A stretch of 64,000 nucleotides of DNA, from assembly GCA_903892035.1 (NCBI GenBank), contig CAITGV010000001.1, forward strand, positions 226,711-290,710, read 5' to 3'. The position numbers were made by a program, and so were the translations under genes. Source of the stretch: an uncultured bacterium. GTDB lineage: Bacteria; Patescibacteriota; Minisyncoccia; Phycocordibacterales; UBA9973. Of the stretch, positions 3,553-45,851 are shown one piece after another. The stretch's first letter is position 1; each line of letters starts with the position of its first letter. The notes under the pieces were generated by a model that ran no database searches, had not been told where the DNA came from, and worked only from the letters and a program-made list of their open reading frames with translations.

Positions 3553-3557
3553 AATTT

Positions 3558-3622
3558 ATACCACCCCCGTCTCGAGTACGAGTCACCCCCTCCTAAATTA
3601 GGAGGGGGTTAGGGGGTGGTAT
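3558..3622. repeat. GC-rich nested-hairpin repeat element copy 1 (ATACCACCCCC...CCCCCTCCTAAATTAGGAGGGGG...GGGGGTGGTAT)
   Basis: Outer 11-bp inverted repeat encloses an inner perfect palindrome CCCCCTCCTAAATTAGGAGGGGG. Two near-identical copies lie at 14665-14730 (inverted) and 38673-38738. This copy starts 5 nt after the clpP stop. Confidence 0.8.
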
Positions 3623-3819
3623 ATTTATTAATTCGGCTATTTCCTGTTTTGAGTAACCTGTGTTATATTAGAACTATCGACATTTAGCAATTTTAAGAAT
3701 GCTTACAGGTACGCTTATATTCAAAAATTTTAGATTTTTATGTTTTTCTTTCCAAATACAGCTTTTAAGAACTAAAATAAAACCTTTGATACAGGGCTAC
3801 TTGTAGGCGCAAAACGTTT

Positions 3820-14655: not shown

Positions 14656-14664
14656 AAAAACATT

Positions 14665-14730
14665 ATACCACCCCCTGGCCCCCTCCTAAATTAGGAGGGG
14701 GTGACTTGTACTCGAGACGGGGGTGGTATA
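14665..14730. repeat. GC-rich nested-hairpin repeat element copy 2 (inverted relative to copies 1 and 3)
   Basis: ATACCACCCCCTGGCCCCCTCCTAAATTAGGAGGGGGTGACTTGTACTCGAGACGGGGGTGGTAT. The side arm CTCGAG...is the reverse complement of the arm in copy 1. Sits in the divergent xerC/rpsO promoter region. Confidence 0.8.
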
Positions 14731-14788
14731 TTTATAACTAATTCCACCCTGCTTGCGTTTTTTTCCAATATATGCTATTATCTCTCGT

Positions 14789-24401: not shown

Positions 24402-24426
24402 TATTAACAATTAATTTAAAAAACAT

Positions 24427-24732
24427 ATGGACAATGAAATGATGGAAAAAATTTTGGTAGAGCTTGGAATGGGAAATCTACCAGAAGAAGAGAAAATTTC
24501 GACAATGGAGAGAATAGGAAAAATTCTTTACCAAGCTGTAATGTTGCGAGTAATGGACACAATGACAGACGAGCAAGCAGAAACTTTTGGCAAAGCAATG
24601 GGTGAAAATCCAACTCCTGAATTTATAATCAATTATTTGAAAGGTGTATTACCAAATATGAATCAAATAATTGAAGAAGAAGCTTTAAAATTCAAAGCAG
24701 AAAGCAAAGCAATAATGTCTTTAGGTGTATAA
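24427..24732 (+). CDS. Small hypothetical protein
   Basis: 101-aa ORF between two larger genes. No motif recognised. Confidence 0.35.
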   Translation: MDNEMMEKILVELGMGNLPEEEKISTMERIGKILYQAVMLRVMDTMTDEQAETFGKAMGENPTPEFIINYLKGVLPNMNQIIEEEALKFKAESKAIMSLGV

Positions 24733-24769
24733 ATTTTTATAACAAAACTATCGTGCTATAGTGTTATAG

Positions 24770-26698
24770 ATGAAAAACCATCTCGACACATTAAACGAAA
24801 AACAAAAAGAAGCGGTCCTAACACTTGTGGGACCGCTTCTTATTGTTGCGGGTGCTGGTGCTGGTAAAACCAAGACTCTCACGCACCGTATAGTAGAGCT
24901 TGCAAAAGAGGGAATTCCACCCGAGCAAATACTGGCCGTGACTTTCACAAATAAAGCCGCAAAAGAAATGCGAGAAAGGGCATTGGCACTACTTTCGAGT
25001 GAGCACATCGACGGTATTCCTTTTATTTCTACTTTTCACGCTTTGGGAGTTTATATAATTCGAGAAAATGCTGTAAAAATTGGTCTCACGAGAAATTTCA
25101 AAATAATGGATGAAGGTGATGCAATTTCTCTCATAAAAGAATCAGTGGTAGAAGCAGGACTCGACCCAAAACAATTTGAACCAAAGAAAATTAAAAGCGT
25201 AATCTCTCGAGAAAAAGGAAATTTTGTCACTCCAGCTGGATATGCAGATAAAGCATTTTCATATTTTGAAAAAGTTGTCGCAGACATCTGGGCAAGATAT
25301 CAGAAAAAAATAAAAGCCGAGGGTGGCTTGGATTTCGATGATTTATTGGTTGAAGCAGTTTTACTTTTAGAAAAGAATTTAGATATTCGCAAACACTATC
25401 AGGACAGGTGGCAATATATTCACATCGACGAGTATCAAGACACAAATCAAGTGCAATATGAATTTGCAAAACTTCTTGCTGGAACTTTGAAAAATATTTG
25501 TGTTGTGGGTGACACAGATCAAAACATTTATAGTTGGCGCGGAGCAAATTTGAAAAATATGCTCCATTTTGAAAAAGATTTTCCTGGTGCAAAAATTGTA
25601 ATGCTCGAGCAAAACTATCGTTCAACAAAAAATATTCTCACCGCTGCAAATGAAATAATTCAAAAAAATACCGTGCGTGTTCCAAAAAATCTTTTTACAG
25701 AAAAAGAAGATGGTGAAAAAGTTTCACTTCACGAAGCTTATGATGAAAGCCATGAAGCAATATATGTGGCTGACAAAATTCACTCACTTATGGAGGGTGG
25801 GGTAGAGGCAAAAGACATTGCTGTACTTTACCGTGCAAACTTTCAATCTCGCGCACTTGAAGATGCATTGCTTGCAGAGCAAATTCCTTATCAAGTTTTA
25901 GGTACACGCTTTTTTGATAGAAAAGAAATTAAAGATACTCTTTCGTATTTACGTGCAGCAGAAAATCACAATTCGCTTTCAGATATTAAAAGAGTAATAA
26001 ATTTTCCTGCTCGTGGAATTGGAAAAGTTACCATTGCAAAAATTTTTGCAGGCATGACAAATGAATTGCCAGCAGGTACACAAAAGAAAGTTGAAAACTT
26101 TTATAAACTTCTTGAAAAAATAAAAGCCTTCTCCCTCACAAGCACTGCGTCGGAAACTATTAAATACATCATCAAAGAAAGTGGCTTGGAAGAAATATTG
26201 AGAGCAGGGGGTGCAGAAGACCTCGAAAGACTCGAAAACATAAAAGAGCTTGTAACGCTTGCTAAAAAGTATGATAATCTTGGCGCCGATGGAGTGATAA
26301 AGCTTCTGGACGATGCCACTCTCGCAAGCGACCAGGATACTCTCCTTATGGCTGAAGGCAAAAAAGCCGACAATGCTGTGCGACTTATGACGGTGCACGC
26401 TTCAAAAGGTTTGGAATTTAAAAATGTTTTTATTACAGGTCTTGAGCAAGATTTATTTCCAAATAAAAATAGAGTGGCAAAAACAAAAGAAGATGGGGAA
26501 GAAGAGAGAAGACTTTTTTATGTCGCACTCACTCGTGCTGAAGAGAAAGTATTTTTAGTGTATGCTGGAATTAGAACCATATTTGGTTCAAGACAAATAA
26601 ATGCTCCGTCAGAATTTATTTATGACATACCGGAACATTTAGTAGAAATAGAATACGGAAATCCAGGAAAGAGTAAAGAAAAGATAGTTTGGATATGA
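24770..26698 (+). CDS. pcrA: ATP-dependent DNA helicase, UvrD/PcrA family
   Basis: LN..Q..AV....GPLLIVAGAGAGKTKTLTHRI (motif I), DEYQDTN (motif II), YRS, VHASKGLEF (motif VI). Confidence 0.85.
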   Translation: MKNHLDTLNEKQKEAVLTLVGPLLIVAGAGAGKTKTLTHRIVELAKEGIPPEQILAVTFTNKAAKEMRERALALLSSEHIDGIPFISTFHALGVYIIRENAVKIGLTRNFKIMDEGDAISLIKESVVEAGLDPKQFEPKKIKSVISREKGNFVTPAGYADKAFSYFEKVVADIWARYQKKIKAEGGLDFDDLLVEAVLLLEKNLDIRKHYQDRWQYIHIDEYQDTNQVQYEFAKLLAGTLKNICVVGDTDQNIYSWRGANLKNMLHFEKDFPGAKIVMLEQNYRSTKNILTAANEIIQKNTVRVPKNLFTEKEDGEKVSLHEAYDESHEAIYVADKIHSLMEGGVEAKDIAVLYRANFQSRALEDALLAEQIPYQVLGTRFFDRKEIKDTLSYLRAAENHNSLSDIKRVINFPARGIGKVTIAKIFAGMTNELPAGTQKKVENFYKLLEKIKAFSLTSTASETIKYIIKESGLEEILRAGGAEDLERLENIKELVTLAKKYDNLGADGVIKLLDDATLASDQDTLLMAEGKKADNAVRLMTVHASKGLEFKNVFITGLEQDLFPNKNRVAKTKEDGEEERRLFYVALTRAEEKVFLVYAGIRTIFGSRQINAPSEFIYDIPEHLVEIEYGNPGKSKEKIVWI

Positions 26699-26700
26699 GT

Positions 26701-26792
26701 CTTCCTCTCCTTTACAAGGAGAGGATACAGGAGAGGTTCTTAATTAATGCACCTCTCCCCAACCCCTCTCCTTATTAATGAGAGGGGGGGGG
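26701..26792. repeat. Second-family palindromic repeat (CCTCTCC/GGAGAGG modules), intergenic copy
   Basis: Hairpins CCTCTCCTTTACAAGGAGAGG and CCCCTCTCCTTATTAATGAGAGGGG. Shares CACCTCTCCCCAACCC(C)TCTCCTTA with the copy at 35234-35333. The G-run creates a spurious upstream ATG for ksgA. Confidence 0.75.
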
Positions 26793-26801
26793 AAATACAA
26801 T

Positions 26802-27653
26802 ATGTACCACAAAGCAAAAAAATCAATGGGTCAAAATTTTTTGAAATCGGCAAAGGCTTTGTCGCAAATTATTTCGGCGGGAGAAATAAATTTGCGGGAC
26901 ACAGTGCTTGAAATTGGTCCAGGAAAGGGGGCACTGACAGAAAAACTTTTAGAGACTAGTTGCACTGTTGTCGCTGTAGAAAAAGACAAATCTCTTTTTG
27001 AATTTTTAAATGAAAAATTTGCAGAATACATAAAAAATAAAAAATTAATTTTAACTGAAGACGATATATTAGAATTTGATATTTCAAAATTAAAGATACA
27101 AAATAAAAATTACAAGATTGTAGCCAACATTCCCTACAACATCACTGGTGCAATATTGAAAAAATTTCTTTCAAGCGAAAATCAACCTGCGAGTATGACA
27201 CTCTTGGTACAAAAAGAAGTCGCGGAGCGTATAGTGACTCGTGATAAAAAAGAAAGCATTCTTTCAGTGAGTGTGAAAGTTTACGGAATGCCAAAATATA
27301 TAGCAAAAGTTCCAGCACGGTATTTTTCTCCTGCACCAAAAGTTGATTCTGCGATAATTCATATTGGGGGGATTAATAAAGAGAAATTTAATACACCTCT
27401 CTCTAGCTCAATCCTCAATGAGCACATTGACCTACTGGGTTGTAAGGAGAGAGGACAGACTCCTGAAGATTGGTTTTTTACAGTTGTAAAAACTGGTTTT
27501 GCGCATAAGAGAAAAATGGCTATAAGTAATTTGTCTGAAATACTAAAAAGGGAAGATCTAGGTAAAGCATTTGCGACACTGGAAATTTCCGAAAAAGCTC
27601 GCCCAGAAGAAATCCCCACAGAAAAATGGCTTGCATTGTCAAAGATGCTATAA
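26802..27653 (+). CDS. rsmA: 16S rRNA (adenine1518/1519-N6)-dimethyltransferase RsmA/KsgA
   Basis: MGQNFL, EIGPGKGALT, NIPYNIT motifs. Start placed at the ATG after the repeat, not at 26778. Confidence 0.8.
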   Translation: MYHKAKKSMGQNFLKSAKALSQIISAGEINLRDTVLEIGPGKGALTEKLLETSCTVVAVEKDKSLFEFLNEKFAEYIKNKKLILTEDDILEFDISKLKIQNKNYKIVANIPYNITGAILKKFLSSENQPASMTLLVQKEVAERIVTRDKKESILSVSVKVYGMPKYIAKVPARYFSPAPKVDSAIIHIGGINKEKFNTPLSSSILNEHIDLLGCKERGQTPEDWFFTVVKTGFAHKRKMAISNLSEILKREDLGKAFATLEISEKARPEEIPTEKWLALSKML

Positions 27654-27660
27654 TTAAAAA

Positions 27661-28011
27661 ATGAAAAATAAAGTTTTACTCTTGGGAATTATCTCTCTTC
27701 TCCTGGTTTTTGTAGGTTTACTACAAGGACAAAAAGCAAATGCTGGGGTCGGGCTTTCTTTTGGAGGAAGAATCGTAACAACAGAAGTACCAGGGGTAGA
27801 ATGTGCAAGTGGGTATGGAATTATTTCAATTACCCCAGCAGGGAAATTTCAAGTTACAGATTACGCAACTACGGGTTTTTACCCAGTAGTAACACACGTT
27901 GGTGGATACATCCTTGGTTTATACAGTCCAATCATGGCTCCACTTTGCGTAGACGATGCAGGTACACCGTGGATGGCCTTCCCTGTAACATATTGGGGTT
28001 CAGGTAAATAA
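27661..28011 (+). CDS. Small secreted hypothetical protein (signal peptide)
   Basis: N-terminal signal peptide MKNKVLLLGIISLLLVFVGLLQG. First gene of the T4SS-like cluster. Confidence 0.45.
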   Translation: MKNKVLLLGIISLLLVFVGLLQGQKANAGVGLSFGGRIVTTEVPGVECASGYGIISITPAGKFQVTDYATTGFYPVVTHVGGYILGLYSPIMAPLCVDDAGTPWMAFPVTYWGSGK

Positions 28012-28012
28012 T

Positions 28013-28918
28013 ATGCAAAAATTTCTTCCTAGTAAAAAATTGGTAATCAAAATCGTAAGCATTGCTTTAATTTTAGTTATCATCTATTTTGCAATAAACC
28101 AAATAAGTAAAAACTCTATTAGTACCACAAACAACAACGACCCTAAAAATATTGCGAACCCGACAGTAGTTTTTACTAGCGTAGTACAACAAGATAGCAA
28201 TAACAATGGTATTCCAGACTGGGAAGAAACTCTCTGGGGACTGGACCCAAAAGGCAATGGTGATGCGAATAAAAAAATAATTGATGCAAAAAAAGCTACC
28301 TTACCTGATCAAGTAAACGGAAAAGATACTAGCGCCGACAATGAAACAACTCTTTTTGCAAAAGAGCTTTTTGCAAGTATTATGGCTTTAAAACAAAATG
28401 GCAATTTATCAGAGCAAAACGTATTGGCTCTTGGTAGTACACTGCAAGCAAATGTTTCAGAAAAAAAGGACATTCCTGATATTTATACGGAAAAATATTT
28501 AATTATAATAAATAGCAATACGCCAAATGACATTGAAAAATATAGACAAAATATGCAAAAGGCCATTGATCCATTTAATAAATCTGCAATGGGTAACGAA
28601 CTTTCAATAATGGCAAACATACTTTCAACTGGCGACAAATCTCAGCTTTCAGATTTGGTAGATATAGGTAAGACATATCAAAAATATGCAGAATCAATGG
28701 CAAAAGTACCAACACCGTCGGGAAATGTAAAAATTCAATTGGATATTGTGAACTCAACAGCAAAAACTGGACTAGCTATACAAAATATGTCTCAAATAAT
28801 AGACAATTCTCTTATTGGTTTACTTGGTGTCAGCCAATACGGCACATATATAGGGAAATATAACGATTCATTAAAAAATTTACATACCTATTTATTAAAT
28901 AATGCTATAATAAAATAG
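28013..28918 (+). CDS. Hypothetical bitopic membrane protein (N-terminal TM anchor)
   Basis: 301 aa, one TM (IVSIALILVIIYFAI), with an Asn/Lys-rich periplasmic domain. Topology resembles VirB8-like proteins, but no sequence motif confirms this. Confidence 0.4.
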   Translation: MQKFLPSKKLVIKIVSIALILVIIYFAINQISKNSISTTNNNDPKNIANPTVVFTSVVQQDSNNNGIPDWEETLWGLDPKGNGDANKKIIDAKKATLPDQVNGKDTSADNETTLFAKELFASIMALKQNGNLSEQNVLALGSTLQANVSEKKDIPDIYTEKYLIIINSNTPNDIEKYRQNMQKAIDPFNKSAMGNELSIMANILSTGDKSQLSDLVDIGKTYQKYAESMAKVPTPSGNVKIQLDIVNSTAKTGLAIQNMSQIIDNSLIGLLGVSQYGTYIGKYNDSLKNLHTYLLNNAIIK

Positions 28919-28922
28919 TAAT

Positions 28923-31394
28923 TTGATTTTAATGAAAAAATCATCACAAAAAATCATTGCTGGAGTATTATCTGTAGTACTAATTGCTCAAGTTTTTTTT
29001 CTTATTCCAACAAAAACAGCACAAGCAATTTCAATCGATGACGCAGCAAAATCTTTAACTGGTGCAATCGTTGGCTGTGCAGTGGGTATTGGTCTTCAGG
29101 CAATTGGGGCAACCACGAGTACGGCAGAATCTGCGGCTGCGGCTGCGCTGAGTGTAAGTGTGGTTGATGTTGTTGGTAACGCTCATTTGGGTGCAGTTGC
29201 AGGTGGAACTGCAGCAATAACAAACGTCCAAACTTGTTTAAACGCACTCGGAAAAGCTGCGGCTCAATTGGTATTGAAAGAAATTACCGCTGAAACAGTA
29301 AACTGGATAAACAGCGGTTTCAAAGGTCAGCCTCTTTTTGTAAAAAATCCTGGTTCATTTTTCAAAAGCATTGCCGACGAAGAAATTGGAAAATTTAGCG
29401 TGACAATTTCTGACTCAACAAAATATCCATTTGGAAAAGATTTCTTGAAATCATATTTGCTCGCAGCAAAAGCTGGTTTTGCTGGCAACGCACAATATAG
29501 TCTCGACAAAGTTCTCGCACAAGGAAATGGGGGAGTCGACGTCCACGCGAGTTTGAAATTCGTCGATGGTGGCGACTTCACACAAGGTGGGTGGACTGGT
29601 TGGGAAGCACTAACCCAATCGCCACAAAATAACCCGATTGGTTTTGGACTTTTAGCTGGTGACCAGCTTGGTTTTCAACTTTCTGGCACAGTTCAGTCTC
29701 CTGCAGATGTAGTTCACAGCCAACTTAATCAAAGTTTAGGTTTTCTTACTCCATCTGTCTGCGTTGACCCAAGAAACTATGAAGACCCCTCAAAAGATAC
29801 GAGTTTTACATTATCATCTGCCACAGCTCAAGCATCCCAAGACTATTCTACAAGCACAGATTCATATGACCCAACACAAGCAGCAAAAGATTGGCTGGCA
29901 AAGCACGTTTGTAAACGTTGGGAAACAACTACTCCGGGTGGAGTCATTGCAAATCAAATTTCAGCAACACTCAATGTTCCAAAAGATTCACTGATAAATG
30001 CAAACGATCTAAATTCTGACATCCAGGCAATTATGGATGCACTTCTAAACCAACTTTTTGACAAAGGACTTTCTTCACTTACTGATACTTCTAGTAATAC
30101 AAAAGTTTATGACAATAACAACAGTACCGGCCAAGGAGATAACAGCAACTCCACAAATTCAAGCGGCTCAAGTTGGAATAACAACAATCCAGTTGGTCCA
30201 AATAGTTACGTCCAACAAAACCAAGGAAACAATCCTTATCCAAATTTTGTTTGGCCAGATGATTTACCAAAAGTAATAGCAGACCAAACTGCATATGTAG
30301 ATGCGCTAAAAAATCAAAATAAAACTACACATGACTTGATTCGTGAAATTTATGAATTAGACTTTTGTGTTCCTGGACCACATCCTGGTTGGGAAAATAA
30401 TTTTCAACAAGGCACACAAAGTATAATTAATTCTCTACAAAGTCAGGTACCACAAGGTTCAGGCGCAACCCAAGATGTGATGTTTCAAATAATTAGTGGT
30501 TTGTTTTATCAGGTTTTTGGAGTCCCTGCTCATTTCAATAGTACAACACCCCACGTCGGCCTTGCTGGACAAGATATTGTAAAAGCGTATATGAGCAGTA
30601 TAGACGACCAAAATGGAGATTTTGCTTTTCAAAATAATACTTCCATCGCACCAGATTCAAAAGCGTGGTTCAATAAAATTGATTCCTACAAACAAAAGAT
30701 TAATGATAACGAAAATTCAATTTTGACTTACAATTCACTTATTCGTAGATTGGGTTACTTGCAGGACGAAGCAAAAGTACAAACTGATATAATTAAACAA
30801 TATGGTGGCCCACAAACTGGTCCAACAAATCCAAATATAAGTATGTCACCACAAGTTGATGCAGCACAACAGCAACTTGCTGTACTAAATAAAACCTTCA
30901 ATCGTATATATAAAGAGCTTGTAAATTCGGACATTGTAAAACAAGCAAATGACGAAACTCAGGGAATGATAGACGATATTGCAGATATTTCAAGTAGCTC
31001 TCGACCAGATTCTCTATTAAGTATTTGTATTAAAGAAACAATACCTACCTCTTCTAACCCTACTACTTACGTAGTACATCCATTTCGAACACCCTACATA
31101 GATACAACAAATCCAGATATTGATGCCCAGCATTGGGTTCACCCTGCAACAGTTTCATTTAATCATTTGACGTTCTACTATCCTACAATTTCTACTTTTT
31201 TGCCTTATTATTATATGTATACTTACCAACCAATAAACAGTGACCCAAATTTACACGCAATTAGTGTTGGTAGTAACACAAACTTTAATGATACAAGCAA
31301 CAATATGCCATACGGGCCAATTGGTCCAGATCTTTTGACTGGTCCACACAGAACAGGATTCAGCATTCTGGAACAAAAAACAGGTACTTGGTAA
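28923..31394 (+). CDS. Large secreted hypothetical protein (823 aa)
   Basis: Signal peptide/anchor, then Gly/Ala-rich stretch and Asn/Ser/Thr-rich regions. Part of the T4SS-like cluster. Confidence 0.45.
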   Translation: MILMKKSSQKIIAGVLSVVLIAQVFFLIPTKTAQAISIDDAAKSLTGAIVGCAVGIGLQAIGATTSTAESAAAAALSVSVVDVVGNAHLGAVAGGTAAITNVQTCLNALGKAAAQLVLKEITAETVNWINSGFKGQPLFVKNPGSFFKSIADEEIGKFSVTISDSTKYPFGKDFLKSYLLAAKAGFAGNAQYSLDKVLAQGNGGVDVHASLKFVDGGDFTQGGWTGWEALTQSPQNNPIGFGLLAGDQLGFQLSGTVQSPADVVHSQLNQSLGFLTPSVCVDPRNYEDPSKDTSFTLSSATAQASQDYSTSTDSYDPTQAAKDWLAKHVCKRWETTTPGGVIANQISATLNVPKDSLINANDLNSDIQAIMDALLNQLFDKGLSSLTDTSSNTKVYDNNNSTGQGDNSNSTNSSGSSWNNNNPVGPNSYVQQNQGNNPYPNFVWPDDLPKVIADQTAYVDALKNQNKTTHDLIREIYELDFCVPGPHPGWENNFQQGTQSIINSLQSQVPQGSGATQDVMFQIISGLFYQVFGVPAHFNSTTPHVGLAGQDIVKAYMSSIDDQNGDFAFQNNTSIAPDSKAWFNKIDSYKQKINDNENSILTYNSLIRRLGYLQDEAKVQTDIIKQYGGPQTGPTNPNISMSPQVDAAQQQLAVLNKTFNRIYKELVNSDIVKQANDETQGMIDDIADISSSSRPDSLLSICIKETIPTSSNPTTYVVHPFRTPYIDTTNPDIDAQHWVHPATVSFNHLTFYYPTISTFLPYYYMYTYQPINSDPNLHAISVGSNTNFNDTSNNMPYGPIGPDLLTGPHRTGFSILEQKTGTW

Positions 31395-31467
31395 TTCTCC
31401 ACACTCTCGCATAAATAAATAGCACTTTATTTCATTTTGTGTGATAAAATAAAATAGTTATACGCGG

Positions 31468-34400
31468 GTGCATATGAAAAAAAAGAATTTCATACAAAAA
31501 ATATTGATTGGCTTCATGCTCTGCGTGATTCTTCTCGCGCCTGTTTCTTTGTCTTTAAATAAAAATGATATAAAGAATTTTCTGGGAGGAAATAGAGCCG
31601 AAGCAGCAACGACACCAAATGCCATTCATGCGTCAAAATGGTATTACGTAAGTGATATTTCAGCTACAAGTGTAGGGAATACATCACTTACTTTAAAATT
31701 TAGTTTTAAAAAAATTGATAAATTAAGCATAGCTGTTGAAAGCTACGCAATATTAGTTTCTGTAAATGATGCAAACAATTTTACTACAACAAATGGGATA
31801 TCAACGGTAATTGCTGACGTTGAACCAACAACACAAAGTTGGGCAGATTCACCTGACACAATACCCGACCAAACTGCTACTTTTAATGACTTTTTCCCAG
31901 TAAGAGCACCTACTGACTATTACTTAAAAGCCAAATCAAATCAAACGGTAGGTTTTTTGCTTGGAAATATGGGTCTTTATTCTGATCCAATAAAAGTAAC
32001 CACCTTAGATAAAAACAACTCAATAGACCAACAAAATCAAAATGATCCAAATGCACTAAATTTAACTAATCCTGATCAAATTGATGTAAGTAATGACTTT
32101 AGTTGTGGATTTATTTCTAAAGATTCAAGCATACTGGGTTGTGTTGTTAAAATTACCTATTATGTTGTTTTTGTGCCTGCATCATGGGTATTTGAGTTAA
32201 CTGGAAAATTGTTTGATTTCTTTATTGGATACAGCTTGGACAGTAAATCTTACAGCGGATCAAGCATGATAACTGAAGGTTGGAAAATTGTTCGTGACAT
32301 TTCAAATATATTTTTTATATTTATTTTACTTTACGTTGCCATTGCAACAATTTTAGACTTACATGGTTTTGAAGCAAAGAAAATGATTGGTACTGTGGTC
32401 GTAATTGCAGTATTAATTAACTTTTCATTGTTTTTTACTCAAGTAATTATTGATACAGGAAACATTGCTGCTCGGGTTTTTTATAATGGAATTACAGTAA
32501 ATGGTCCAGACGGAACAGAGCTCAACTCAACTAATGGAAAACAACTTTCTGTTGCAATTGTAAATCAGTTTAAACCTCAGAAAATGTTTAATAAAACATT
32601 ACTAAACGAAAGCACCAGCATAAAGGATAGTAGCGGTAATATTGCGCAATTGGGTACTTCCGGTTATCAGGGATTTTTCATAATTATTACATTAATCGCA
32701 GCAGCAATTTGTTTACTTGGTGCTTACACATTCTTTATGTCTGCTTTTATCTTTCTCGGACGTGTGATTCAACTATGGATTTCAATGATATTCGCCCCTT
32801 TTGCTTTTGTTTCATATGTTGTTCCTGGCGCAAAAGGCATGAAGGGAATTGGTGCAGACTCTTGGTGGAAAGATTTACTTGGAAATGCATTTTTGGCACC
32901 AATTTTTATATTCTTCATTTATTTAATTATTCGATTTTTGAAAATAATCACGATCATTAACATTAGTAACGACGCATCACTTATGAGTATTGTGATGTCA
33001 ATCGTTATTCCTCTCTTAATTATAACTTTCCTTTTGATCAAAGCTCGTAAGATTGCCGAGAGTTTGGCGGGGGACATCGGTGGATATATGGTTACAGCGG
33101 CAAAAGCTGTGGGTGGCACTATTGTTGGAGCATCGATGGGTATTGCAGCTGTGGCTGGAAGGCAGACTGTGGGAAGAGGAGCAAACTGGCTTTCAAGCAA
33201 TAAAACTCTTGCAGAATGGTCATCTGGTAAAAAAGGTTGGGTAGCGCAAGCTCTTGCAAAACCTTTGTCATCGAAAGTAAATACACTTTCAAAATCAAGC
33301 TTTGATGTTCGTAATAGTGCTGGTGGCCAACAAGTTTCATCTCTCACTGGCTTTAACTTAAATAATGCAGGGACAAAATTTGCAACACTCGATACTGCAA
33401 ATACTGCTGGTGGTTGGGTAGGTAAACAGGCTCGCCAAGCTCAAAAAGAAAAAGAAATTGCCGAAAATCTAAACAAAGGTTACGACAAGGCTTTGTTTGA
33501 ACAACAAGATGAAGAAGTCCACCACAGAGAAGAAAAAATTCATGAGAAAGAAGAAGAAATTGCTGCAAAAACACTTAGTAGAGACCAGTTTACAAGAGGT
33601 ACACCACAATGGGAAGAAAATAATAAAGAATTGGCATTAATGAAACAAAATCTTTCAGTATTAAAAACTGGAGGGGTTATGAGAAAATATGTTGAAAAGG
33701 ATGAAATTGATCCTAATACAGGAGAAAAAACAGGTAATAAAATTAAAGTACTCGAAAATGAAAAAGATGCCGATGGTAAAGACAAAAAAACTGATGGCCT
33801 ATCAAAGATGCAGGGTGACCTTGCTAGAATTAAAACTGCACCGGAGACAGAATACTATGCAAATAAGCGTCGTGAATCTGGCCAGGTATTTATGGACGAC
33901 GAGCGTGACAAAAATGGAAACATTAAAAGATTTGGCAGACGCGTCACAGCAAACAATGCAGCTGCATATGAAACAGAAAGACTTACAAAGGATATAAGAA
34001 AACTCAATAACGAAATCGAAACAAGAAGAACAAAAAATCCAAATGATCCGAAAATCAAAGAGTTTGGTGAAAAAGTAACAGATTACGAAAAGAAAATTGG
34101 GGTATTACAATCTGAAAAAACTCTGGTTGATACTTTCCACAAAGATGCTTCGCAAGCAAAAAATAATGTTGCTTCACTAACAAAAGAAATACAAACACTA
34201 TATAAAAAAGGTGATCTAACAACTGCAGATAGAGCAACTATTGCTGAAAAGGAAGCTAAAATTAAAAACGAAACCGCAAAACTTACACCAAATGACGCAG
34301 TTAGTAAGGCAATGAAAAACCAAAAAGACTTAATTGGTGATATTAACTTCAAACAAGGAATGAAACAAATTGGAAAAGAAGCTGTTAAAGGATTCTTTGC

Positions 34401-34725
34401 TGGAGTTACTGATTGGCGTTCATGGGCTACTGCAACAGTCGGTTCAGCTATGGGTAAAAGTTTTGCAAAAGTATTGCTTGGAACTGGGGGTGGGGCTTTC
34501 GAATCAGTAAAACGCGTACTTATGGACTATAGTGGAAGAATGAATCAAGATATTGCAAAAGCGGCGGCGGCGAAGTTTGGAAAGTCTACATATGAAGCTC
34601 CGTCTGGAGGAGGTCACGGAGGTGGTGGACACGATGACCATCATGAAGAAGCACACGCTCCAGCATCAAATGGACACGGAGCAGGAGGTCACGATGATCA
34701 CGGTGGGGGAGGAAATAAACATTAG
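31468..34725 (+). CDS. VirB6/TrbL-like polytopic membrane protein with extracellular N-domain and long cytoplasmic coiled-coil tail
   Basis: Signal peptide and ~230-aa exodomain, at least 6 TM helices in the central region, then a ~550-aa charged coiled-coil C-terminus ending in a His/Gly-rich tail (GGHGGGGHDDHHEE..GGHDDHGGGG). This architecture is typical of Gram-positive-type VirB6 homologs. Confidence 0.5.
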   Translation: MHMKKKNFIQKILIGFMLCVILLAPVSLSLNKNDIKNFLGGNRAEAATTPNAIHASKWYYVSDISATSVGNTSLTLKFSFKKIDKLSIAVESYAILVSVNDANNFTTTNGISTVIADVEPTTQSWADSPDTIPDQTATFNDFFPVRAPTDYYLKAKSNQTVGFLLGNMGLYSDPIKVTTLDKNNSIDQQNQNDPNALNLTNPDQIDVSNDFSCGFISKDSSILGCVVKITYYVVFVPASWVFELTGKLFDFFIGYSLDSKSYSGSSMITEGWKIVRDISNIFFIFILLYVAIATILDLHGFEAKKMIGTVVVIAVLINFSLFFTQVIIDTGNIAARVFYNGITVNGPDGTELNSTNGKQLSVAIVNQFKPQKMFNKTLLNESTSIKDSSGNIAQLGTSGYQGFFIIITLIAAAICLLGAYTFFMSAFIFLGRVIQLWISMIFAPFAFVSYVVPGAKGMKGIGADSWWKDLLGNAFLAPIFIFFIYLIIRFLKIITIINISNDASLMSIVMSIVIPLLIITFLLIKARKIAESLAGDIGGYMVTAAKAVGGTIVGASMGIAAVAGRQTVGRGANWLSSNKTLAEWSSGKKGWVAQALAKPLSSKVNTLSKSSFDVRNSAGGQQVSSLTGFNLNNAGTKFATLDTANTAGGWVGKQARQAQKEKEIAENLNKGYDKALFEQQDEEVHHREEKIHEKEEEIAAKTLSRDQFTRGTPQWEENNKELALMKQNLSVLKTGGVMRKYVEKDEIDPNTGEKTGNKIKVLENEKDADGKDKKTDGLSKMQGDLARIKTAPETEYYANKRRESGQVFMDDERDKNGNIKRFGRRVTANNAAAYETERLTKDIRKLNNEIETRRTKNPNDPKIKEFGEKVTDYEKKIGVLQSEKTLVDTFHKDASQAKNNVASLTKEIQTLYKKGDLTTADRATIAEKEAKIKNETAKLTPNDAVSKAMKNQKDLIGDINFKQGMKQIGKEAVKGFFAGVTDWRSWATATVGSAMGKSFAKVLLGTGGGAFESVKRVLMDYSGRMNQDIAKAAAAKFGKSTYEAPSGGGHGGGGHDDHHEEAHAPASNGHGAGGHDDHGGGGNKH

Positions 34726-34740
34726 AAATTGTTGAATTTT

Positions 34741-34773
34741 TCCCTCTCATTTCAGGAGAGGGTCAGGGTTAGG
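34741..34773. repeat. Second-family hairpin module (CCCTCTC-ATTTCAG-GAGAGGG) downstream of VirB6-like gene
   Basis: 7-bp perfect stem, GC-rich, 16 nt after the stop codon. Same CCTCTC/GAGAGG motif as the repeats at 26701 and 35234. Confidence 0.55.
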
Positions 34774-34811
34774 TAAGATAGTTTGAATTTAATTTATGTT
34801 ACAATAAATAT

Positions 34812-35615
34812 ATGGACAAAGAAAAAGTAATGCAAAGAATAAAAGAAGCTTATGAAATTTTGCCTGAAGATATTCAGAAGGCAATTATGGATTCAAGCTA
34901 TCAAGAAACTCTTACTGACATTGCAAAAAATAATAAACTTACTTACGAGCAACTTGGAAGTTTGGAAATGCAAACTACAATGGTAATGCTCGGTCTCACG
35001 CACCCAAATAGTTTCCGCCACGACCTAGGCGAAGATTTGGAAATTAAAGACCAAGAACTCTTGAAAAAAATTGTTGAAGAAGTGAATGAAAGAATATTTA
35101 AAAATATTCGTGAATCACTCCAAGCAATACATGAAGTAAATGAATCTGACACCGACGACGACAATGAAACTTTTTGGAAAGTTGGTCACGAAAATGAAAA
35201 AGTGCCAGGCGATGGGGAAGATGAAGAGGAAATCACCTCTCCCCAACCCTCTCCTTATAAAGGAGAGGGAGCCCAACCCGCAGTTTCCCCCCTCATTAAT
35301 AAGGAGGGGGGTCAGGGGGGAGGTTCTTCTGACATCTTCAAAAAATCCGGCATTGAATTTATAAACCCCGTAGTAAAAGTTCCAACCCCAATTCCACAAC
35401 CGACAGATACCGAAAGAAATAAAATATTAAGTGGTGTAGAAAACCCTATCGCTGGAACATCGGCAATGAATGTCCCACCCAAAGAAAGTATTTTAGAAAA
35501 AAAACTTACAACTTCTTTTGGTTTGCCAAAAGTTGAAAGTGATCATACTGTTCCGAATATCACAAAAGCTGAAGATAAAAAAGTAAGTAGTGATCCGTAT
35601 CGAGAAGCAATCTAA
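34812..35615 (+). CDS. Acidic hypothetical protein carrying an in-frame palindromic-repeat insertion
   Basis: 267-aa ORF. Residues ~141-175 (ITSPQPSPYKGEGAQPAVSPLINKEGGQGGG) are encoded by a copy of the CCTCTCC/GGAGAGG repeat. Confidence 0.45.
   Translation: MDKEKVMQRIKEAYEILPEDIQKAIMDSSYQETLTDIAKNNKLTYEQLGSLEMQTTMVMLGLTHPNSFRHDLGEDLEIKDQELLKKIVEEVNERIFKNIRESLQAIHEVNESDTDDDNETFWKVGHENEKVPGDGEDEEEITSPQPSPYKGEGAQPAVSPLINKEGGQGGGSSDIFKKSGIEFINPVVKVPTPIPQPTDTERNKILSGVENPIAGTSAMNVPPKESILEKKLTTSFGLPKVESDHTVPNITKAEDKKVSSDPYREAI
35234..35333. repeat. Second-family palindromic repeat copy located inside a CDS
   Basis: CACCTCTCCCCAACCCTCTCCTTATAAAGGAGAGGG...CCCCCCTCATTAATAAGGAGGGGGG. The second hairpin is the reverse complement of the CTCCTTATTAATGAG module at 26770-26790. 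Confidence 0.75.
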
Positions 35616-36025
35616 TGCAATTCAAAGTTCCACAATTTATCGATGTTGAAGACAAGATTTTTGGGCCTTTCAGCTTCAAGGAATTTGCTTACATAGTCGG
35701 AGGCCTAGGTGCTTCATATGTAGTTTATAAAATAATGCCTTTAATTTTAGGTATTTTTCTTATAATCCCCATTCTTGCTCTTGCTGGGGCTCTGACATTT
35801 ATAAAAATCAACAATAGACCATTTATCGATATTCTTCAGTCGGCTTTTCAATACGCATTTCAAGATAAACTTTATGTTTGGAAAAAAGCTCAAAAGAAAA
35901 AGAAAAAAGTTGAAGAGGTGGTCGCAACAGAAAGTTTGGTTCCACGTTTATCTGAAAGTAAATTGAAAGATTTATCTTGGAGTTTAGATGTTTTGGATGC
36001 AAGAAAAAATAGTACTCCAAAATGA
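35615..36025 (+). CDS. VirB3/PrgI-like small membrane protein (two TM helices)
   Basis: 136 aa with two adjacent hydrophobic helices, sited immediately upstream of VirB4, as for PrgI/TcpE/VirB3. Assignment rests on position and topology only. Confidence 0.35.
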   Translation: MQFKVPQFIDVEDKIFGPFSFKEFAYIVGGLGASYVVYKIMPLILGIFLIIPILALAGALTFIKINNRPFIDILQSAFQYAFQDKLYVWKKAQKKKKKVEEVVATESLVPRLSESKLKDLSWSLDVLDARKNSTPK

Positions 36026-36137
36026 AATATTTATAAAAAAAGTCCTCGGGTCTCCTCATCTACGATTCGGCCAGACATTTTTTTATTAACATTTCATTTT
36101 TACGTACAAAGTCACATAACAATGATATAATAAATTT

Positions 36138-36827
36138 ATGGCAGTTAATGCAAAATCGACACAAGGATTTGTACCAATAAAAGAAGTACGCGATGGCATA
36201 GTAATCCTCAAAGATGGGGGAGTGCGCGCAATTCTTATGGCTTCTTCTGTAAACCTTTCACTAAAATCTGCCGATGAACAACGCGCGACAATTGCACAAT
36301 TTCAATCCTTTTTAAATTCTCTAGAATTTTCTACACAAATTGTTATTCAATCTCGCCGTCTAGACATCCGCCCATACCTTTTAACCCTAGAAACTAGAAT
36401 GAAGGATCAACTTGAACCATTGTTAAAAGTTCAAACTCGTGAATATATTGAATTTATCCGTTCATTCACAGAACAAGTAAATATAATGACAAAAAACTTT
36501 TTTATAGTTGTCCCATATTCAACTCCTGCAATTTCACCAGAGGGTGGAATAATGCAATTCTTAGGAATGTCGAAAAAATCTGGCAAAACAGGGGACAAAA
36601 AAGGTGATGCTTTGATTGATTTCGAAGAAAAAAGAAGCCAACTCGAACAACGCACAAGCATTGTTTCCGACGGTCTTTCAAGAATTGGAGTACGGACGGT
36701 GATGCTCGGCACAGAAGAAGTGATAGAATTGTTTTATAAGACTTTCAATCCAGGCGACACGAGTCAGGGTGTAGCACTGCCAGGAAAAGAAAGTGAGGGT
36801 GACGCAAATAAACAACCAAAACAATAA
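36138..36827 (+). CDS. VirB4-family ATPase, N-terminal domain encoded as a separate ORF
   Basis: FVPIKEVRDGIVILKDGGVRAILMASSVNLSLKSADEQ matches the conserved N-terminus of Gram-positive-type VirB4 (TrsE/PrgJ/TcpF). Stop TAA 36825-36827 is followed after 1 nt by the ATG of the next ORF. Confidence 0.6.
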   Translation: MAVNAKSTQGFVPIKEVRDGIVILKDGGVRAILMASSVNLSLKSADEQRATIAQFQSFLNSLEFSTQIVIQSRRLDIRPYLLTLETRMKDQLEPLLKVQTREYIEFIRSFTEQVNIMTKNFFIVVPYSTPAISPEGGIMQFLGMSKKSGKTGDKKGDALIDFEEKRSQLEQRTSIVSDGLSRIGVRTVMLGTEEVIELFYKTFNPGDTSQGVALPGKESEGDANKQPKQ

Positions 36828-36828
36828 T

Positions 36829-38667
36829 ATGAGCATAATAGACGATTTGTTTGGAAAAAAAAATACGAAGGTTGGAACAGACAAACAAGTCCTGCCTGTT
36901 TTGCCGTCTGAAATTTACGAAGCAGCAACTCTAGACTTCCAAGACATCATAGCTCCCTCTGCTTTGCGTGTTGAACCAAAAGCACTAAATCTTGGAGAAA
37001 AATTGGCGCGCACTTATTTTGTCATTTCTTACCCTCGATATCTTACAGACAATTGGTTTTCACCAATCATCAATCTCGATAAAATTTTTGATGTTTCAAT
37101 TTTTATTCACCCGATAGATACAGCAGTAGTATTAAGGCAATTTCAAAAAAAAGTTGCCGAAGTTCAAAGCCAAATAAACGAACGTTCAAAAAAGGGTCTG
37201 GTGCGCGACCCAATGCTCGACACTGCATACCAAGACTTGGAAGGCCTGCGCAACAATTTAATGCAAGCTCAAGAAAAAATGTTTGACGTCGGACTCTACA
37301 TCACAATGTATGCTGACAATGAAAATGAACTTTTCAAAATTGAAAACGAAATCAAATCAATTTTAGAATCTCGCCTAGTATATTTTAAACCAGCTCTCTT
37401 CCAGCAAGAAGAAGCTTTCAAGAGCGTAATGCCGACTGGCACCGACCTCCTAAATATTCACCAAAAATTAAATTCTGAACCACTCTCATCAATTTTTCCT
37501 TTCGTTTCTTTTGACCTCACTTCGGATAAAGGAATTCTTTACGGCGTGAATCGCCACAATTCTAGTCTTGTTATTTTTGATCGTTTCTCTTTGGAAAATT
37601 ACAACTCTATCACTTTTGCAAAATCTGGTTCTGGAAAATCATACGCTACAAAATTGGAAATCATTCGTACATTAATGTTTGATACAGAGGTAATAGTTAT
37701 CGACCCCGAGCGTGAATACGAATACCTTGCAGAAGCCATCGGTGGAAGATATTTCAATATCTCTCTTTCTTCAGATCACCATATCAACCCTTTTGATTTG
37801 CCAATACCAAGAAGTGATGAAAATCCTGCGGACATTTTGCGTTCAAATATCATAAACCTCGTCGGTCTTTTCCGTATTATGCTCGGAGGCTTAACTCCTG
37901 AAGAAGATTCAATTATCGATCGCGCAATCAGTGAAACTTACGCGCTTAAAGATATTTCAGCAGAATCAGATTTTTCAAATATCGAGCCACCACTTTTGTC
38001 TGATTTCGAAATGGTTCTATCTGGAATGGAGGGGAGTGAGTCTATTATTCAACGTCTTACAAAATACACTCGTGGCACGTGGTCTACTTTCATAAACCAG
38101 CCTTCAAATGTGGATATAAATCGTAAATTTGTCGTTTTCTCTGTACGTGATATGGAAGACGAGCTAAAACCAGTGGCAATGTACATAGTCACTCACTTTA
38201 TCTGGAATGCTGTTCGCAAAAACTTAAAAAAGAGGCTTCTTGTTGTGGATGAGGCATGGTGGATGATGAAATCTGACGACACAGCCTCTTTCCTTTACTC
38301 AATTGCAAAACGAGGCCGTAAATATTTCCTTGGTCTTGCGACAATTACCCAAGACGTCGGCGACTTTATGAAAAGCCCGTACGGTGTGCCAATTGTCACA
38401 AACTCTTCAATTCAAATGCTTTTAAAACAATCACCTTCGACTATCGACCTACTACAAAAGACCTTTAACCTTACAGATGAAGAAAAATATCTACTCCTTG
38501 AGTCAAATGTGGGGGAGGGCATATTCTTTGCGGGACTCAAACACGTTGCAATTAAAATTATTTCATCATATACGGAAGACCAAATTATTACTTCCGACCC
38601 ATCGCAGGTTTTAGCAATAAAAAAAGCAAAGGATGATTTGGCGGCAAGTGAATCTGGGCAGAAATAA
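36829..38667 (+). CDS. VirB4-family conjugation/T4SS ATPase, core and C-terminal ATPase domain
   Basis: RTYFVISYPR (VirB4 middle-domain motif), Walker A ITFAKSGSGKSYA, Walker B LLVVDEAWWMM. Confidence 0.8.
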   Translation: MSIIDDLFGKKNTKVGTDKQVLPVLPSEIYEAATLDFQDIIAPSALRVEPKALNLGEKLARTYFVISYPRYLTDNWFSPIINLDKIFDVSIFIHPIDTAVVLRQFQKKVAEVQSQINERSKKGLVRDPMLDTAYQDLEGLRNNLMQAQEKMFDVGLYITMYADNENELFKIENEIKSILESRLVYFKPALFQQEEAFKSVMPTGTDLLNIHQKLNSEPLSSIFPFVSFDLTSDKGILYGVNRHNSSLVIFDRFSLENYNSITFAKSGSGKSYATKLEIIRTLMFDTEVIVIDPEREYEYLAEAIGGRYFNISLSSDHHINPFDLPIPRSDENPADILRSNIINLVGLFRIMLGGLTPEEDSIIDRAISETYALKDISAESDFSNIEPPLLSDFEMVLSGMEGSESIIQRLTKYTRGTWSTFINQPSNVDINRKFVVFSVRDMEDELKPVAMYIVTHFIWNAVRKNLKKRLLVVDEAWWMMKSDDTASFLYSIAKRGRKYFLGLATITQDVGDFMKSPYGVPIVTNSSIQMLLKQSPSTIDLLQKTFNLTDEEKYLLLESNVGEGIFFAGLKHVAIKIISSYTEDQIITSDPSQVLAIKKAKDDLAASESGQK

Positions 38668-38672
38668 AAATT

Positions 38673-38738
38673 ATACCACCCCCGATTCGATTACGAATCT
38701 CCCCCTCCTAAATTAGGAGGGGGTAAAGGGGGTGGTAT
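38673..38738. repeat. GC-rich nested-hairpin repeat element copy 3
   Basis: ATACCACCCCCGATTCGATTACGAATCTCCCCCTCCTAAATTAGGAGGGGGTAAAGGGGGTGGTAT. Same orientation as copy 1. Starts 6 nt after the VirB4 stop. Confidence 0.8.
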
Positions 38739-38768
38739 CTTGTACATATTTTTACTATAATATAAACA

Positions 38769-39752
38769 ATGAAAAGAATTTTATTTTCTTTCTTGATATT
38801 GGCTATATTTATGCCTTTTTCTCTGGCTCTTGCTGCTGGTCAAGTTTCAGCTTCAAGTATAAACGTCGCAATCAATCCTGAAGTTCCAGGACCAAATACA
38901 AATACTTCAATAACACTTTCGAGCTATGCGACAGACATAAATCGTGCATTAATCTCCTGGACACTAGACGGGAAGACGATGCAGTCTGGTATTGGAAAAA
39001 CAATTTTTTCTTTCACTACAAAAGGCGTAGGAACAGCCACAACAGTTACGGTAAATATAAGTATTGATTTACAACCCGCAATTACAAAAACAATAGTCAT
39101 TACTCCCGCAGATGTAGATATGCTTTGGGAAGCTATCGATTCATATGTGCCACCTTTCTACAAAGGTAAAGCCATGCCAAGCTCTGAAGCAAAAATAAAG
39201 GTCACAGCAATGCCCAATATAAAAGGCGCAAACGGAGTAAAAATAAAATCTTCAGATATGGTTTACAATTGGAAACACAATTACGACAACGATCCAAACG
39301 GTTCTGGTTACGGAAAAGATTCCTACATAGTAAATGCAAATTATTTAAATAATTCTGAAATTGTTGATTTGAGTGTTTCGTCAGTAAGCAATTCTAGTGC
39401 AGCATCGGGTAGGGCAGTGCTCGTGACTGGGGACCCTAAAATTGTTTTTTATCAAAAGGATCCACTTGAAGGAATAAAGTATGAAAATGCTTTAAAAACT
39501 GATTTAAATCTCTCAACAGATGAGACAACCTTGGTCGCAGAACCATATTTCTTTTCACCCGCTGATATAAATTCTTCAAAATATAAATACACATGGAACA
39601 TAAATGGTAGCGCAGTGGACACTCCAGCAAAAAAGAATGTGATGACTCTTCGAAAAGGACCAACTGGAGGAACTGCAAATATTTCTCTAGAAATCGAAAA
39701 CGTATTAAAATTATTCCAAGACGCAAAGCAGAATTTAAACATTAACTTCTAA
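38769..39752 (+). CDS. Secreted hypothetical protein (signal peptide, Ser/Thr/Asn-rich)
   Basis: Signal peptide MKRILFSFLILAIFMPFSLALAAG. Predicted beta-rich extracellular protein within the T4SS-like cluster. Confidence 0.45.
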   Translation: MKRILFSFLILAIFMPFSLALAAGQVSASSINVAINPEVPGPNTNTSITLSSYATDINRALISWTLDGKTMQSGIGKTIFSFTTKGVGTATTVTVNISIDLQPAITKTIVITPADVDMLWEAIDSYVPPFYKGKAMPSSEAKIKVTAMPNIKGANGVKIKSSDMVYNWKHNYDNDPNGSGYGKDSYIVNANYLNNSEIVDLSVSSVSNSSAASGRAVLVTGDPKIVFYQKDPLEGIKYENALKTDLNLSTDETTLVAEPYFFSPADINSSKYKYTWNINGSAVDTPAKKNVMTLRKGPTGGTANISLEIENVLKLFQDAKQNLNINF

Positions 39753-41892: not shown

Positions 41893-41944
41893 TTTATGTC
41901 AAAACAAAAATTCATCTTCATAGTTTCAATGGTAATCGTCGGAT
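41893..41944 (+). repeat. 52-bp direct repeat, left copy (contains a 16-codon duplicate of the 5' end of the gene at 43211)
   Basis: Identical over 52 nt to 43208-43259. Encodes MSKQKFIFIVSMVIVG then a stop. Confidence 0.85.
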
Positions 41945-43207: not shown

Positions 43208-43259
43208 TTTTATGTCAAAACAAAAATTCATCTTCATAGTTTCAATGGTAATCGTCGGA
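43208..43259 (+). repeat. 52-bp direct repeat, right copy (native 5' end of the downstream gene)
   Basis: Identical to 41893-41944. Confidence 0.85.
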
Positions 43260-45069: not shown

Positions 45070-45070
45070 A

Positions 45071-45835: not shown

Positions 45836-45851
45836 AAAAGAAAGCTAAAAA

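Follow-up and report, generated by a model that had tools for sequence, protein, structure and literature searches.

A C-rich-tagged palindromic module found in many bacterial phyla lies in-frame within a protein-coding gene of a Patescibacteria genome

Introduction

Rickettsia palindromic elements (RPE), as summarised in PMC10969869 after Ogata et al. (2000, 2002), are ~105-150 bp long and were described in Rickettsia. Repetitive extragenic palindromic (REP) sequences, and the doublets of them known as REPINs, are stem-loops with an unpaired tag at one end that occur as singlets or inverted dimers, mostly between genes and with no target duplication (PMC3733652; Bertels and Rainey 2011, PMC3116915). 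REPs tagged with GTAG or CGTC were reported from eight phyla by Di Nocera et al. (2013; PMC3733652), and their intragenic copies, of which many lie in genes for replication and repair, encode 20-30 aa. The small dispersed repeats (SDR) of Nostoc (Elhai et al. 2008, as described in PMC3116915 and PMC4390886) are cyanobacterial, hairpin-forming and 21-27 nt long, and can be nested in larger repeats. Here we describe a palindromic module with a C-rich tag that was found in a 64,000-nt stretch of DNA from an uncultured bacterium of the Patescibacteriota (assembly GCA_903892035.1, contig CAITGV010000001.1, positions 226,711 to 290,710; hereafter, the window). A two-module copy is read in-frame inside the gene of a 267-aa protein, and related copies occur in many phyla.

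Results

The module consists of a C-rich tag, ACC(TC)NCCCC, a linker of 2-6 nt and a hairpin, CCCYCTCC-loop-GGAGRGGG, and its copies are found singly or as inverted pairs. A covariance model, R1, with a hairpin of ~11 bp (CCCYCTCCT-loop-AGGAGRGGG), was built from alignment A2, which holds 76 modules from other phyla and two from the window, and was run on the window without filters. Eight full-length modules were detected (30-56 bits, E 8e-8 to 2.5e-16; Table 1). Further R1 matches, down to E ~4e-5, were partial or on the opposite strand and lay inside the same six loci; the remainder had E >= ~0.3. The initial annotation of the window had distinguished a first and a second repeat family. Since R1 finds modules of both, they are variants of one module type and the second is not a separate family.

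One of these copies lies within a gene. Open reading frame (ORF) 34812-35615 had been noted to read through the repeat in-frame, and it does translate the copy, as ITSPQPSPYKGEGAQPAVSPLINKEGGQGGG (residues 141-171, corresponding to 35232-35324). The copy had been placed at 35234-35333; its presence was confirmed but these bounds were not, the element proper being 35235-35324. Its layout is ACCTCTCCCC-AA-(hairpin 35247-35269)-spacer-(hairpin 35287-35311)-TCA-GGGGGGAGGT, in other words two inverted modules with their tags outward, and its ends pair as a 10-bp outer stem. Because the tags are outward and paired, the whole element folds as a Y. The predicted fold of 35225-35340 has a minimum free energy of -58.3 kcal/mol, with a z of -4.8 relative to shuffles.

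The nearest full-length homologs of the 267-aa protein, P0002-P0004 (239-242 aa, ~45% identity over aligned columns), align with it on both flanks, DDDNETFW... and ...KSGIE, and lack the repeat-encoded segment. The gap in these homologs is ~45 residues long and contains the 30-31 residues encoded by the repeat. P0002 is a positional ortholog, as its gene order (host-gene homolog, PrgI, TraC-like, VirB4-like ATPase) is identical to that of the window. No module was present at the P0002 locus, L122, or at the two P0004 loci, L123 and L124, and we found no distant ortholog with the same peptide minus the nucleotide repeat. The in-gene DNA also gave the best R1 matches of the window, at 56 and 51 bits. 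Collectively, the homolog gap, the module-free ortholog locus and the R1 scores support the earlier proposal that a repeat inserted in coding sequence contributes a Pro/Gly-rich linker, the 90-nt segment being, as judged from sequence, an element inserted relative to the orthologs.

The position of the segment in the protein was examined with AlphaFold2 using the family alignment. A confident helical domain was predicted for residues 1-112, and residues 114-171, a linker at low confidence, had a predicted local distance difference test score (pLDDT) below 50, which owes in part to absent alignment columns, and no secondary structure. A conserved DPYRE motif is found at the C-terminus. The 90-nt copy is open in three of the six combinations of frame and orientation, whereas the intergenic copies in the window, including that between pcrA and ksgA, have stops in all six. 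This pattern is what a selection filter on random insertions would leave. When the 31-aa repeat peptide was compared by phmmer with 1.84 billion proteins, the protein itself and two repeat-only ORFs were the sole matches, and a 41-aa peptide query had no candidates in the word index; with such short peptides, both searches had low statistical power.

The initial annotation had listed three copies with common hairpin modules, and these are present far above chance. Against an expectation of 2.1, the window contains 12 occurrences of GGAGAGG (a count reached by 0 of 100 shuffles), nine of them within the three copies, and the 16-mer CACCTCTCCCCAACCC is found at two sites only, 26750 and 35234. 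The module had also been reported in both orientations, which is borne out by the 15-mer CTCCTTATTAATGAG, of which each strand has one copy, at 26768(+) and 35292(-), against an expectation of 0. The 15-mer appears in both orientations because the modules at 26749(+) and 35326(-) have a derived stem mismatch in common. These two modules differ by a compensatory T-A to C-G change and look like sister copies made in this genome with their pairing preserved. In a scan for perfect GC-rich hairpins of >=7 bp across the 64 kb, all sites but one unrelated site belonged to the repeats, and hairpins of the presumed first family (family 1 in Table 1) were recovered at 3585, 14679 and 38701. The small hairpin of the 38669 copy differs from that of the 3557 copy by compensatory changes; considered as an RNA tetraloop, this second hairpin has no consistent loop type.

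The remaining named copies are both intergenic. The region 26695-26800, which includes the pcrA-ksgA copy, folds with a z of -5.6 relative to shuffles. The remark that this copy inflates the predicted start of ksgA is reasonable, because ATG 26778 lies inside its last hairpin, the protein started at ATG 26802 matches Pfam RrnaAD from its residue 3 onward, and public annotations of KsgA disagree (283 aa versus 291 aa). The copy given as 34741-34773 is real, scoring 30 bits against the family model, but it is degenerate and its fold is no better than those of shuffles.

To what extent the module occurs elsewhere was assessed with a 23-nt hairpin pattern from the window, CCCYCTCCTWWWWWAGGAGRGGG, for which ~1 chance match was estimated in 596 Gb. 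At least 120 loci in species-representative genomes matched. They include Nostocales (Nostoc, Calothrix, Rivularia, Brasilonema and Scytonema, finished genomes among them), Ignavibacteria, Bacteroidota, many Patescibacteria lineages, Melainabacteria, Chloroflexi, Leptospirales and other spirochaetes, and a few Proteobacteria. Twelve viral contigs also carry the hairpin, with both tag variants present. Among the matches listed, the tag ACCTCACCC upstream and/or its complement GGGTGAGGT downstream, neither of which was in the pattern, was found near 120 of 133, usually at a distance of 3-5 nt from the hairpin. The two degenerate pattern positions pair, in the matches listed, as T-A in 130 cases, C-G in 11, T-G in one and C-A in none, and the adjoining pair on the outer side obeys Watson-Crick rules in 94 of 142, with three pair types represented. 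Tag and hairpin also co-vary across the collection, ACCTCACC or ACCTCTCC occurring with CCCTCTCC, and ACCACCC or ACCTCCCC with CCCCCTCC. The stems are kept paired by compensatory changes.

An independent scan of metagenome contigs with the 5' half only, ACCTCTCCCCAACC(N)CTCTCC (20 nt), gave at least 120 further loci on contigs of 29-75% GC. Among the matches listed, an exact complement within 45 nt closed the hairpin in 91 of the 122 that were testable, against a chance rate of 0.24%. The whole arm was complementary in 88 of these 91, arm length (8 or 9) co-varied, and the loop measured 3-18 nt. A frequent complete form of 51 nt reads ACCTCTCCCC-AA-CCCCTCTCC-loop-GGAGAGGGG-CGAA-GGGGTGAGGT and has a constant T-T mismatch in the outer stem.

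Several matches lie in larger repeats or in repeat-only frames. Many of those in Nostoc, Calothrix and Rivularia are nested in larger repeated units; in Nostoc (L004, L008, L033, L048, L054, L073, L076, L077, L109 and others) the module sits within a conserved repeat of ~130 nt (taaataacatacaatttatgtccctggctt-module-aagctagatacaggatgaagttttgcattttatttaatccacgtt). Five of the 12 hairpin-bearing viral contigs (L127, L131, L133, L134 and L135) are related phages, as they have three large proteins in common, and on L134 two copies end 5-6 nt ahead of ATG starts. The proteins P0022 (82 aa) and P0023 (124 aa) are almost wholly a tandem translation of the module (TSPQPSPYKGEG... and SLNPLLIKERVP...) and are probably spurious ORFs across repeat arrays.

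The module recurs inside conserved genes of other genomes. Long open frames contain 13 of the 129 genome-set hairpins listed, eight of the 13 being in Patescibacteria and none in cyanobacteria. Judged from their translations alone, the hosts appear to be PcrA/UvrD, UvrA, UvrC, GltX, IF-2, LigA, an O-antigen-ligase-like protein and a protein with a PHP domain. Only GltX, with 27 extra residues relative to PDB 4gri, and PcrA, with 21 extra residues relative to the PcrA of the window, were confirmed as clean insertions against a reference protein, the UvrA, UvrC, IF-2 and PHP-domain hosts standing by name only. LigA of L052 was set aside as evidence of insertion, its net length being unchanged relative to E. 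coli LigA. Hosts of in-frame metagenome copies, assigned with Pfam, are a MiaB-like protein, HypF, two IleRS, a radical-SAM/DUF2344 protein, QueA, a nonribosomal peptide synthetase adenylation domain, a STAND-WD40 protein (two copies), Pol I and LeuRS. Outside the host gene, GltX and PcrA, in-frame copies were seen in about a dozen gene families. Two of the possible reading frames are used repeatedly, ...TSPxPSPYKGEG..., which is that used by the window copy, and ...PHPxPLLIKERG.... The peptide TSPQPSPYKGEG of the window copy is also found in L045 (IF-2) and L010. The palindromic insert in PcrA/UvrD was observed in a gene of a Moraniibacteriota metagenome-assembled genome (MAG) (L025:833-4228), and the same gene has, as judged by eye, a large intein-like insertion in the helicase core, from ...VVGDDWQCFPRG... 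to ...VVHNSIYGWRGA....

In three diverged IleRS genes (L151, L208 and L226) the 51-nt element occupies one and the same codon position. The element is identical at 49-50 of its 51 positions (96-98%), all differences being in the loop, compared to 63-77% identity for the flanks (150 nt on each side). A fourth IleRS gene, L244, carries a copy at a different site. The pair L145 and L195 was discarded as a test of element against flank conservation, being too closely related.

Table 1. Positions of the palindromic modules, their composites and associated genes in the window.
Feature	Position	Strand	Remarks
In-gene composite element	35235..35324	+	90 nt = 30 codons; codon boundaries at both ends
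Module A of in-gene element	35233-35271	+	56.1 bits, E 2.5e-16; tag, linker and hairpin; read in frame as (I)TSPQPSPYKGEG
Module B of in-gene element, inverted	35286-35326	-	51.4 bits; + strand reading SPLINKEGGQGGG
Host gene	34812..35615	+	267 aa, no assigned function; leads PrgI / TraC-like / VirB4-like cluster
pcrA-ksgA intergenic composite	26701..26792		Fills spacer; two inverted modules, tags inward; three consecutive hairpins
Module of pcrA-ksgA copy	26749-26788	+	51.3 bits
Module of pcrA-ksgA copy	26701-26739	-	35.2 bits
ksgA (RrnaAD)	26802..27653	+	Likely true start; ATG 26778 in repeat adds 8 residues, MRGGGKYN
Lone degenerate module	34740-34776	-	30.1 bits, E 7.6e-8; between 1085-aa membrane protein gene and host gene
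Family 1 copy after clpP	3557..3623	+	TATACCACCCCC-small hairpin-CCCCCTCC hairpin-GGGGGTGGTATA; z -7.6
Family 1 module	3584-3622	-	45.2 bits
Family 1 copy	14664..14733	-	Orientation opposite to that of the other two; lies 9 nt ahead of a Xer-like recombinase gene (13744-14655, minus)
Family 1 module	14665-14703	+	41.8 bits
Family 1 copy directly after VirB4-like ATPase gene	38669..38738	+	z -7.3
Family 1 module	38699-38738	-	43.9 bits
Gene content of window			Pyrophosphatase, trigger factor, ClpP, RNase Y, PNPase, PcrA, KsgA, DnaA, DnaN, YidC, RuvB
Type IV secretion-like cluster			PrgI, TraC-like, VirB4-like and T4SS-pilin genes

The window has a GC content of ~37%. The 267-aa host protein is present, 100% identical, on five contigs of metagenome assemblies (ERZ1426842 and ERR4194711), the longest being 488 kb. 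No relative more than 50% identical to it was found in the protein collection searched, and the named sources of its more distant homologs are Patescibacteria, which suggests a Patescibacteria/CPR-like host organism. The adjacent ORF 31468-34725 encodes a 1085-aa polytopic membrane protein with ~6-7 hydrophobic segments. It had been called VirB6-like, a name for which homology gives no support, as neither Pfam nor NCBIfam produced a match. The C-terminal tail of this protein is rich in His, Gly and Asp (34590-34722; GGGHGGGGHDDHHEEAH...GGHDDHGGGGNKH).

Other features of the window were also recorded. An exact direct repeat of 52 nt (TTTATGTCAAAACAAAAATTCATC...) at 41893-41944 and 43209-43260, 1316 nt apart, brackets a gene for an AAA_14/DUF4143 ATPase (42025-43161), an arrangement resembling an insertion in which the 5' end of the gene that follows was duplicated. 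In the region 44563-49500, jag (R3H) and yidC are on the minus strand and are followed by dnaA (46784-48184) and dnaN (48403-49500); GC falls to 25% in the 48-50 kb part of the window, and this is likely to be a replication-origin region. All eight modules lie to the left of the putative origin region (3.5-38.7 kb), with zero in 39-64 kb. Coding tandem repeats occur at 22188-22430 (102-nt unit) inside a 788-aa ORF with no Pfam match (22035-24401) and at 60288-61091 (units of ~243-249 nt) inside an 834-aa DUF11-containing ORF (59722-62226). Four tRNA genes, two per strand, are clustered at 9400-10774.

Discussion

We consider that the module is probably a non-autonomous, dispersed palindromic element of the REP/REPIN/RPE kind that is tolerated in protein linkers. 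It is assigned to this kind because it is a tagged stem-loop occurring as singlets and inverted doublets with mostly intergenic copies, because its intragenic survivors are in-frame and stop-free and sister copies occur in one genome, and because no flanking direct repeat was obvious at the few boundaries viewed by eye. These were the boundaries of the window, IleRS and GltX insertions, which are known to within a few nt; no systematic analysis was made. The family 1 copies end in TATA...TATA, which could conceal a TA duplication.

Under such a scheme, a trans-supplied factor would copy the module, as DNA, to new sites. By analogy with REP and its associated tyrosine transposase (RAYT), and with IS200/IS605, our leading guess is that this factor would be a single-strand DNA enzyme that recognises hairpins. 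One two-module copy of 90 nt would have landed in the variable linker of the 267-aa gene, within the type IV secretion-like cluster. The copy may have persisted because its length is a multiple of three with no stop in the frame used, and because the flexible linker would tolerate a peptide of Pro, Ser, Gly and charged residues.

A number of points weigh against this assignment. We infer both the mobility of the module and the translation of the segment from sequence. All-against-all clustering of 855 ORFs from 132 loci revealed no recurrent neighbour family. Likewise, no transposase (RAYT and Y1 HUH transposases included), HUH enzyme or reverse transcriptase was detected with Pfam and NCBIfam among the 40 window ORFs checked, which are all of the larger ones among the 51 ORFs of >=100 aa in this 64 kb of genome. 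The module is near-identical across phyla and across 29-75% GC, which is unusual for a purely selfish repeat. Finally, the conservation of the IleRS element relative to the flank rate has a P of ~2e-5 by a binomial estimate, and this pattern suggests nucleotide-level selection, gene conversion or repeated same-site insertion over passive decay.

More tentatively, the module may represent a third superfamily of tagged bacterial palindromes. A C-rich 10-nt tag would replace GTAG or CGTC, and the module sequence would be kept near-constant from Patescibacteria to cyanobacteria, Bacteroidota, spirochaetes and phages through a widely shared trans factor or through the pairing rules of the 16S 3' end. 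The palindromes of this superfamily would routinely colonise essential genes of small-genome Patescibacteria and be better conserved there than these genes.

The rival explanation that survives best, though we think it rather unlikely, is that purifying selection maintains the module as a structured nucleic-acid motif with a function, such as stabilising mRNA, blocking RNase or binding a protein. Its spread would then reflect a host function and the in-gene copies would be functional. The stems are almost invariant across phyla with loops of 3-18 nt, compensatory changes preserve their pairing, and the IleRS copy is conserved well beyond its flanks (P ~2e-5), synonymous positions included. The three family 1 copies are, in addition, oriented alike relative to transcription. 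Set against this, the copies lie in unrelated genes at unrelated positions, and the intergenic ones precede some genes and follow others. At the covarying closing pair G-T is not commoner than A-C, and therefore nothing points to the RNA strand. No Rfam family was identified, even at E <= 10: a scan of the whole window at gathering thresholds gave only four tRNAs, and permissive scans of 35180-35380 and 3500-3680 gave weak matches of <=23 bits, far under thresholds. An intrinsic terminator was also considered and rejected, since a consensus scan of 24000-40000 called no module hairpin and no copy in that range is terminator-like; the copies at 3557 and 14664 are outside it.

The arms of the hairpin also invite comparison with the ribosome. 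CUCCUUA forms the last 7 nt of 16S rRNA, UAAGGAG is the canonical Shine-Dalgarno (SD) sequence, and GGGGUGA can pair with UCACCUC. It is conceivable, but improbable, that the module serves translational coupling as a portable hairpin that sequesters the SD, its arms mimicking the 16S rRNA 3' end and the SD partner. A universal anti-SD could explain why the module is alike in all phyla, and in some cases the end of a copy lies 5-10 nt ahead of a start codon (26792 to ATG 26802 in the window, and L134, L177 and L202). However, the start of a long ORF lies 3-14 nt downstream in only 4-6% of strand-instances, which is not above random positions, and many copies are found after stop codons or inside genes. 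As the interval of 3-14 nt beyond the G-rich end holds no excess of starts, a ribosome-binding site was rejected as a general function.

We regard it as still more improbable that the copies serve as double-stranded sites of recombination, of the Xer/dif type or of the integron attC type. Such sites would fit an AT-rich centre flanked by inverted arms, a mismatched outer stem and a variable tip. The architecture is also attC-like in its two nested stems, its asymmetric internal loop (AA versus CGAA), its conserved T-T mismatch and the variability of its terminal loop. A recombinase gene does start 9 nt from the 14664 copy, but the enzyme is XerC/D-like, with 133 bits compared to an integron-integrase cut-off of 265, and there are no cassette arrays. 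The ends are unlike the attC R-box consensus, and a loop of 3-18 nt is a poor fit to a fixed crossover spacer. The last alternative, that the in-gene segment is an ancestral low-complexity linker resembling hairpins by chance, or an assembly artefact, draws on the variable length of this linker in the protein family and is effectively refuted by exact 15- and 16-nt matches to the intergenic copy (0 expected), by scores of 56 and 51 bits against R1, by orthologs without the segment, by the same sequence in the MAG and in a separate Logan assembly, and by the presence of the family in finished isolate genomes.

Intragenic palindromes of the REP/RPE type are a kind that is already known. In-frame palindromes in essential genes are best known from Rickettsia, together with some intragenic REPs; here, the repeat is common to many phyla. 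Literature searches, including searches with exact nucleotide and peptide strings, returned no paper with the module sequences, only unrelated primers, and did not cover the SDR sequences. The module, its tag, its near-identity across phyla and its frequency in housekeeping genes of Patescibacteria are apparently new relative to the literature searched. In-frame insertion is especially frequent in Patescibacteria, which have compact genomes with little intergenic room. The module is also an annotation hazard, producing false starts such as that of ksgA, spurious repeat-only ORFs such as P0022 and P0023, and inserts of 12-30 residues in housekeeping proteins. Its near-identity across distant taxa and its conservation above the rate of host genes point to a factor that copies, corrects or selects it, and such a factor would be a concrete handle on how REP-like elements spread.

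Among more distant systems, miniature inverted-repeat transposable elements (Correia/NEMIS, ERIC, Nezha and others) resemble the module in being non-coding, with inverted-repeat ends, a stable fold and occasional in-frame fusions. They have target-site duplications and a cognate insertion sequence with the same ends, and the module is much shorter. No full-length insertion sequence with the same ends was seen in the loci examined, a genome-wide search not having been made. The GC clusters of yeast mitochondria are GC-rich palindromes in an organelle genome, and coding palindromes are found in Nematomorpha mitochondria (PMC6649704). Such organelle palindromes are similar to the module as GC-rich palindromes inside protein-coding genes of AT-rich genomes, but they belong to organelles and have an unrelated sequence, and in some cases they are bypassed and not translated. 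The Nostoc SDR, from the accounts cited above, are likewise very small hairpin repeats of heterocystous cyanobacteria nested in larger units, and when compared by description only they could possibly be the same as the module.

The closest likeness is to the REPs, REPINs and RPE. Like a REP, the module is a tagged stem-loop found as singlets, such as that at 34740-34776, and as inverted doublets, at 35235-35324 and 26701-26792, that fold into a larger hairpin. Like intragenic REPs, it has hosts that include PcrA, UvrA, UvrC, LigA and Pol I. Unlike them, it has a C-rich tag of 9-10 nt (ACCTCACCCC, ACCTCTCCCC or ACCACCCCC), an inverted copy of which can close the outer stem. Neither GTAG nor CGTC is conserved at either end of the module, the conserved flank being ACCTCACCCC or a variant, and since the defining tag is absent we do not file the module in the GTAG or CGTC families. 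The RPE, in the summary available, are set apart by description: the module is ~36-51 nt (90 when paired), occurs in many phyla and has nearly one sequence. By the same summary, however, they are like it in being dispersed palindromes of a small AT-rich genome that lie in-frame in unrelated, often essential genes and are read in the frame of the host protein. In the gene described here, as in GltX and PcrA, the module has this trait of the RPE, an in-frame insertion in unrelated genes that is absent from their orthologs.

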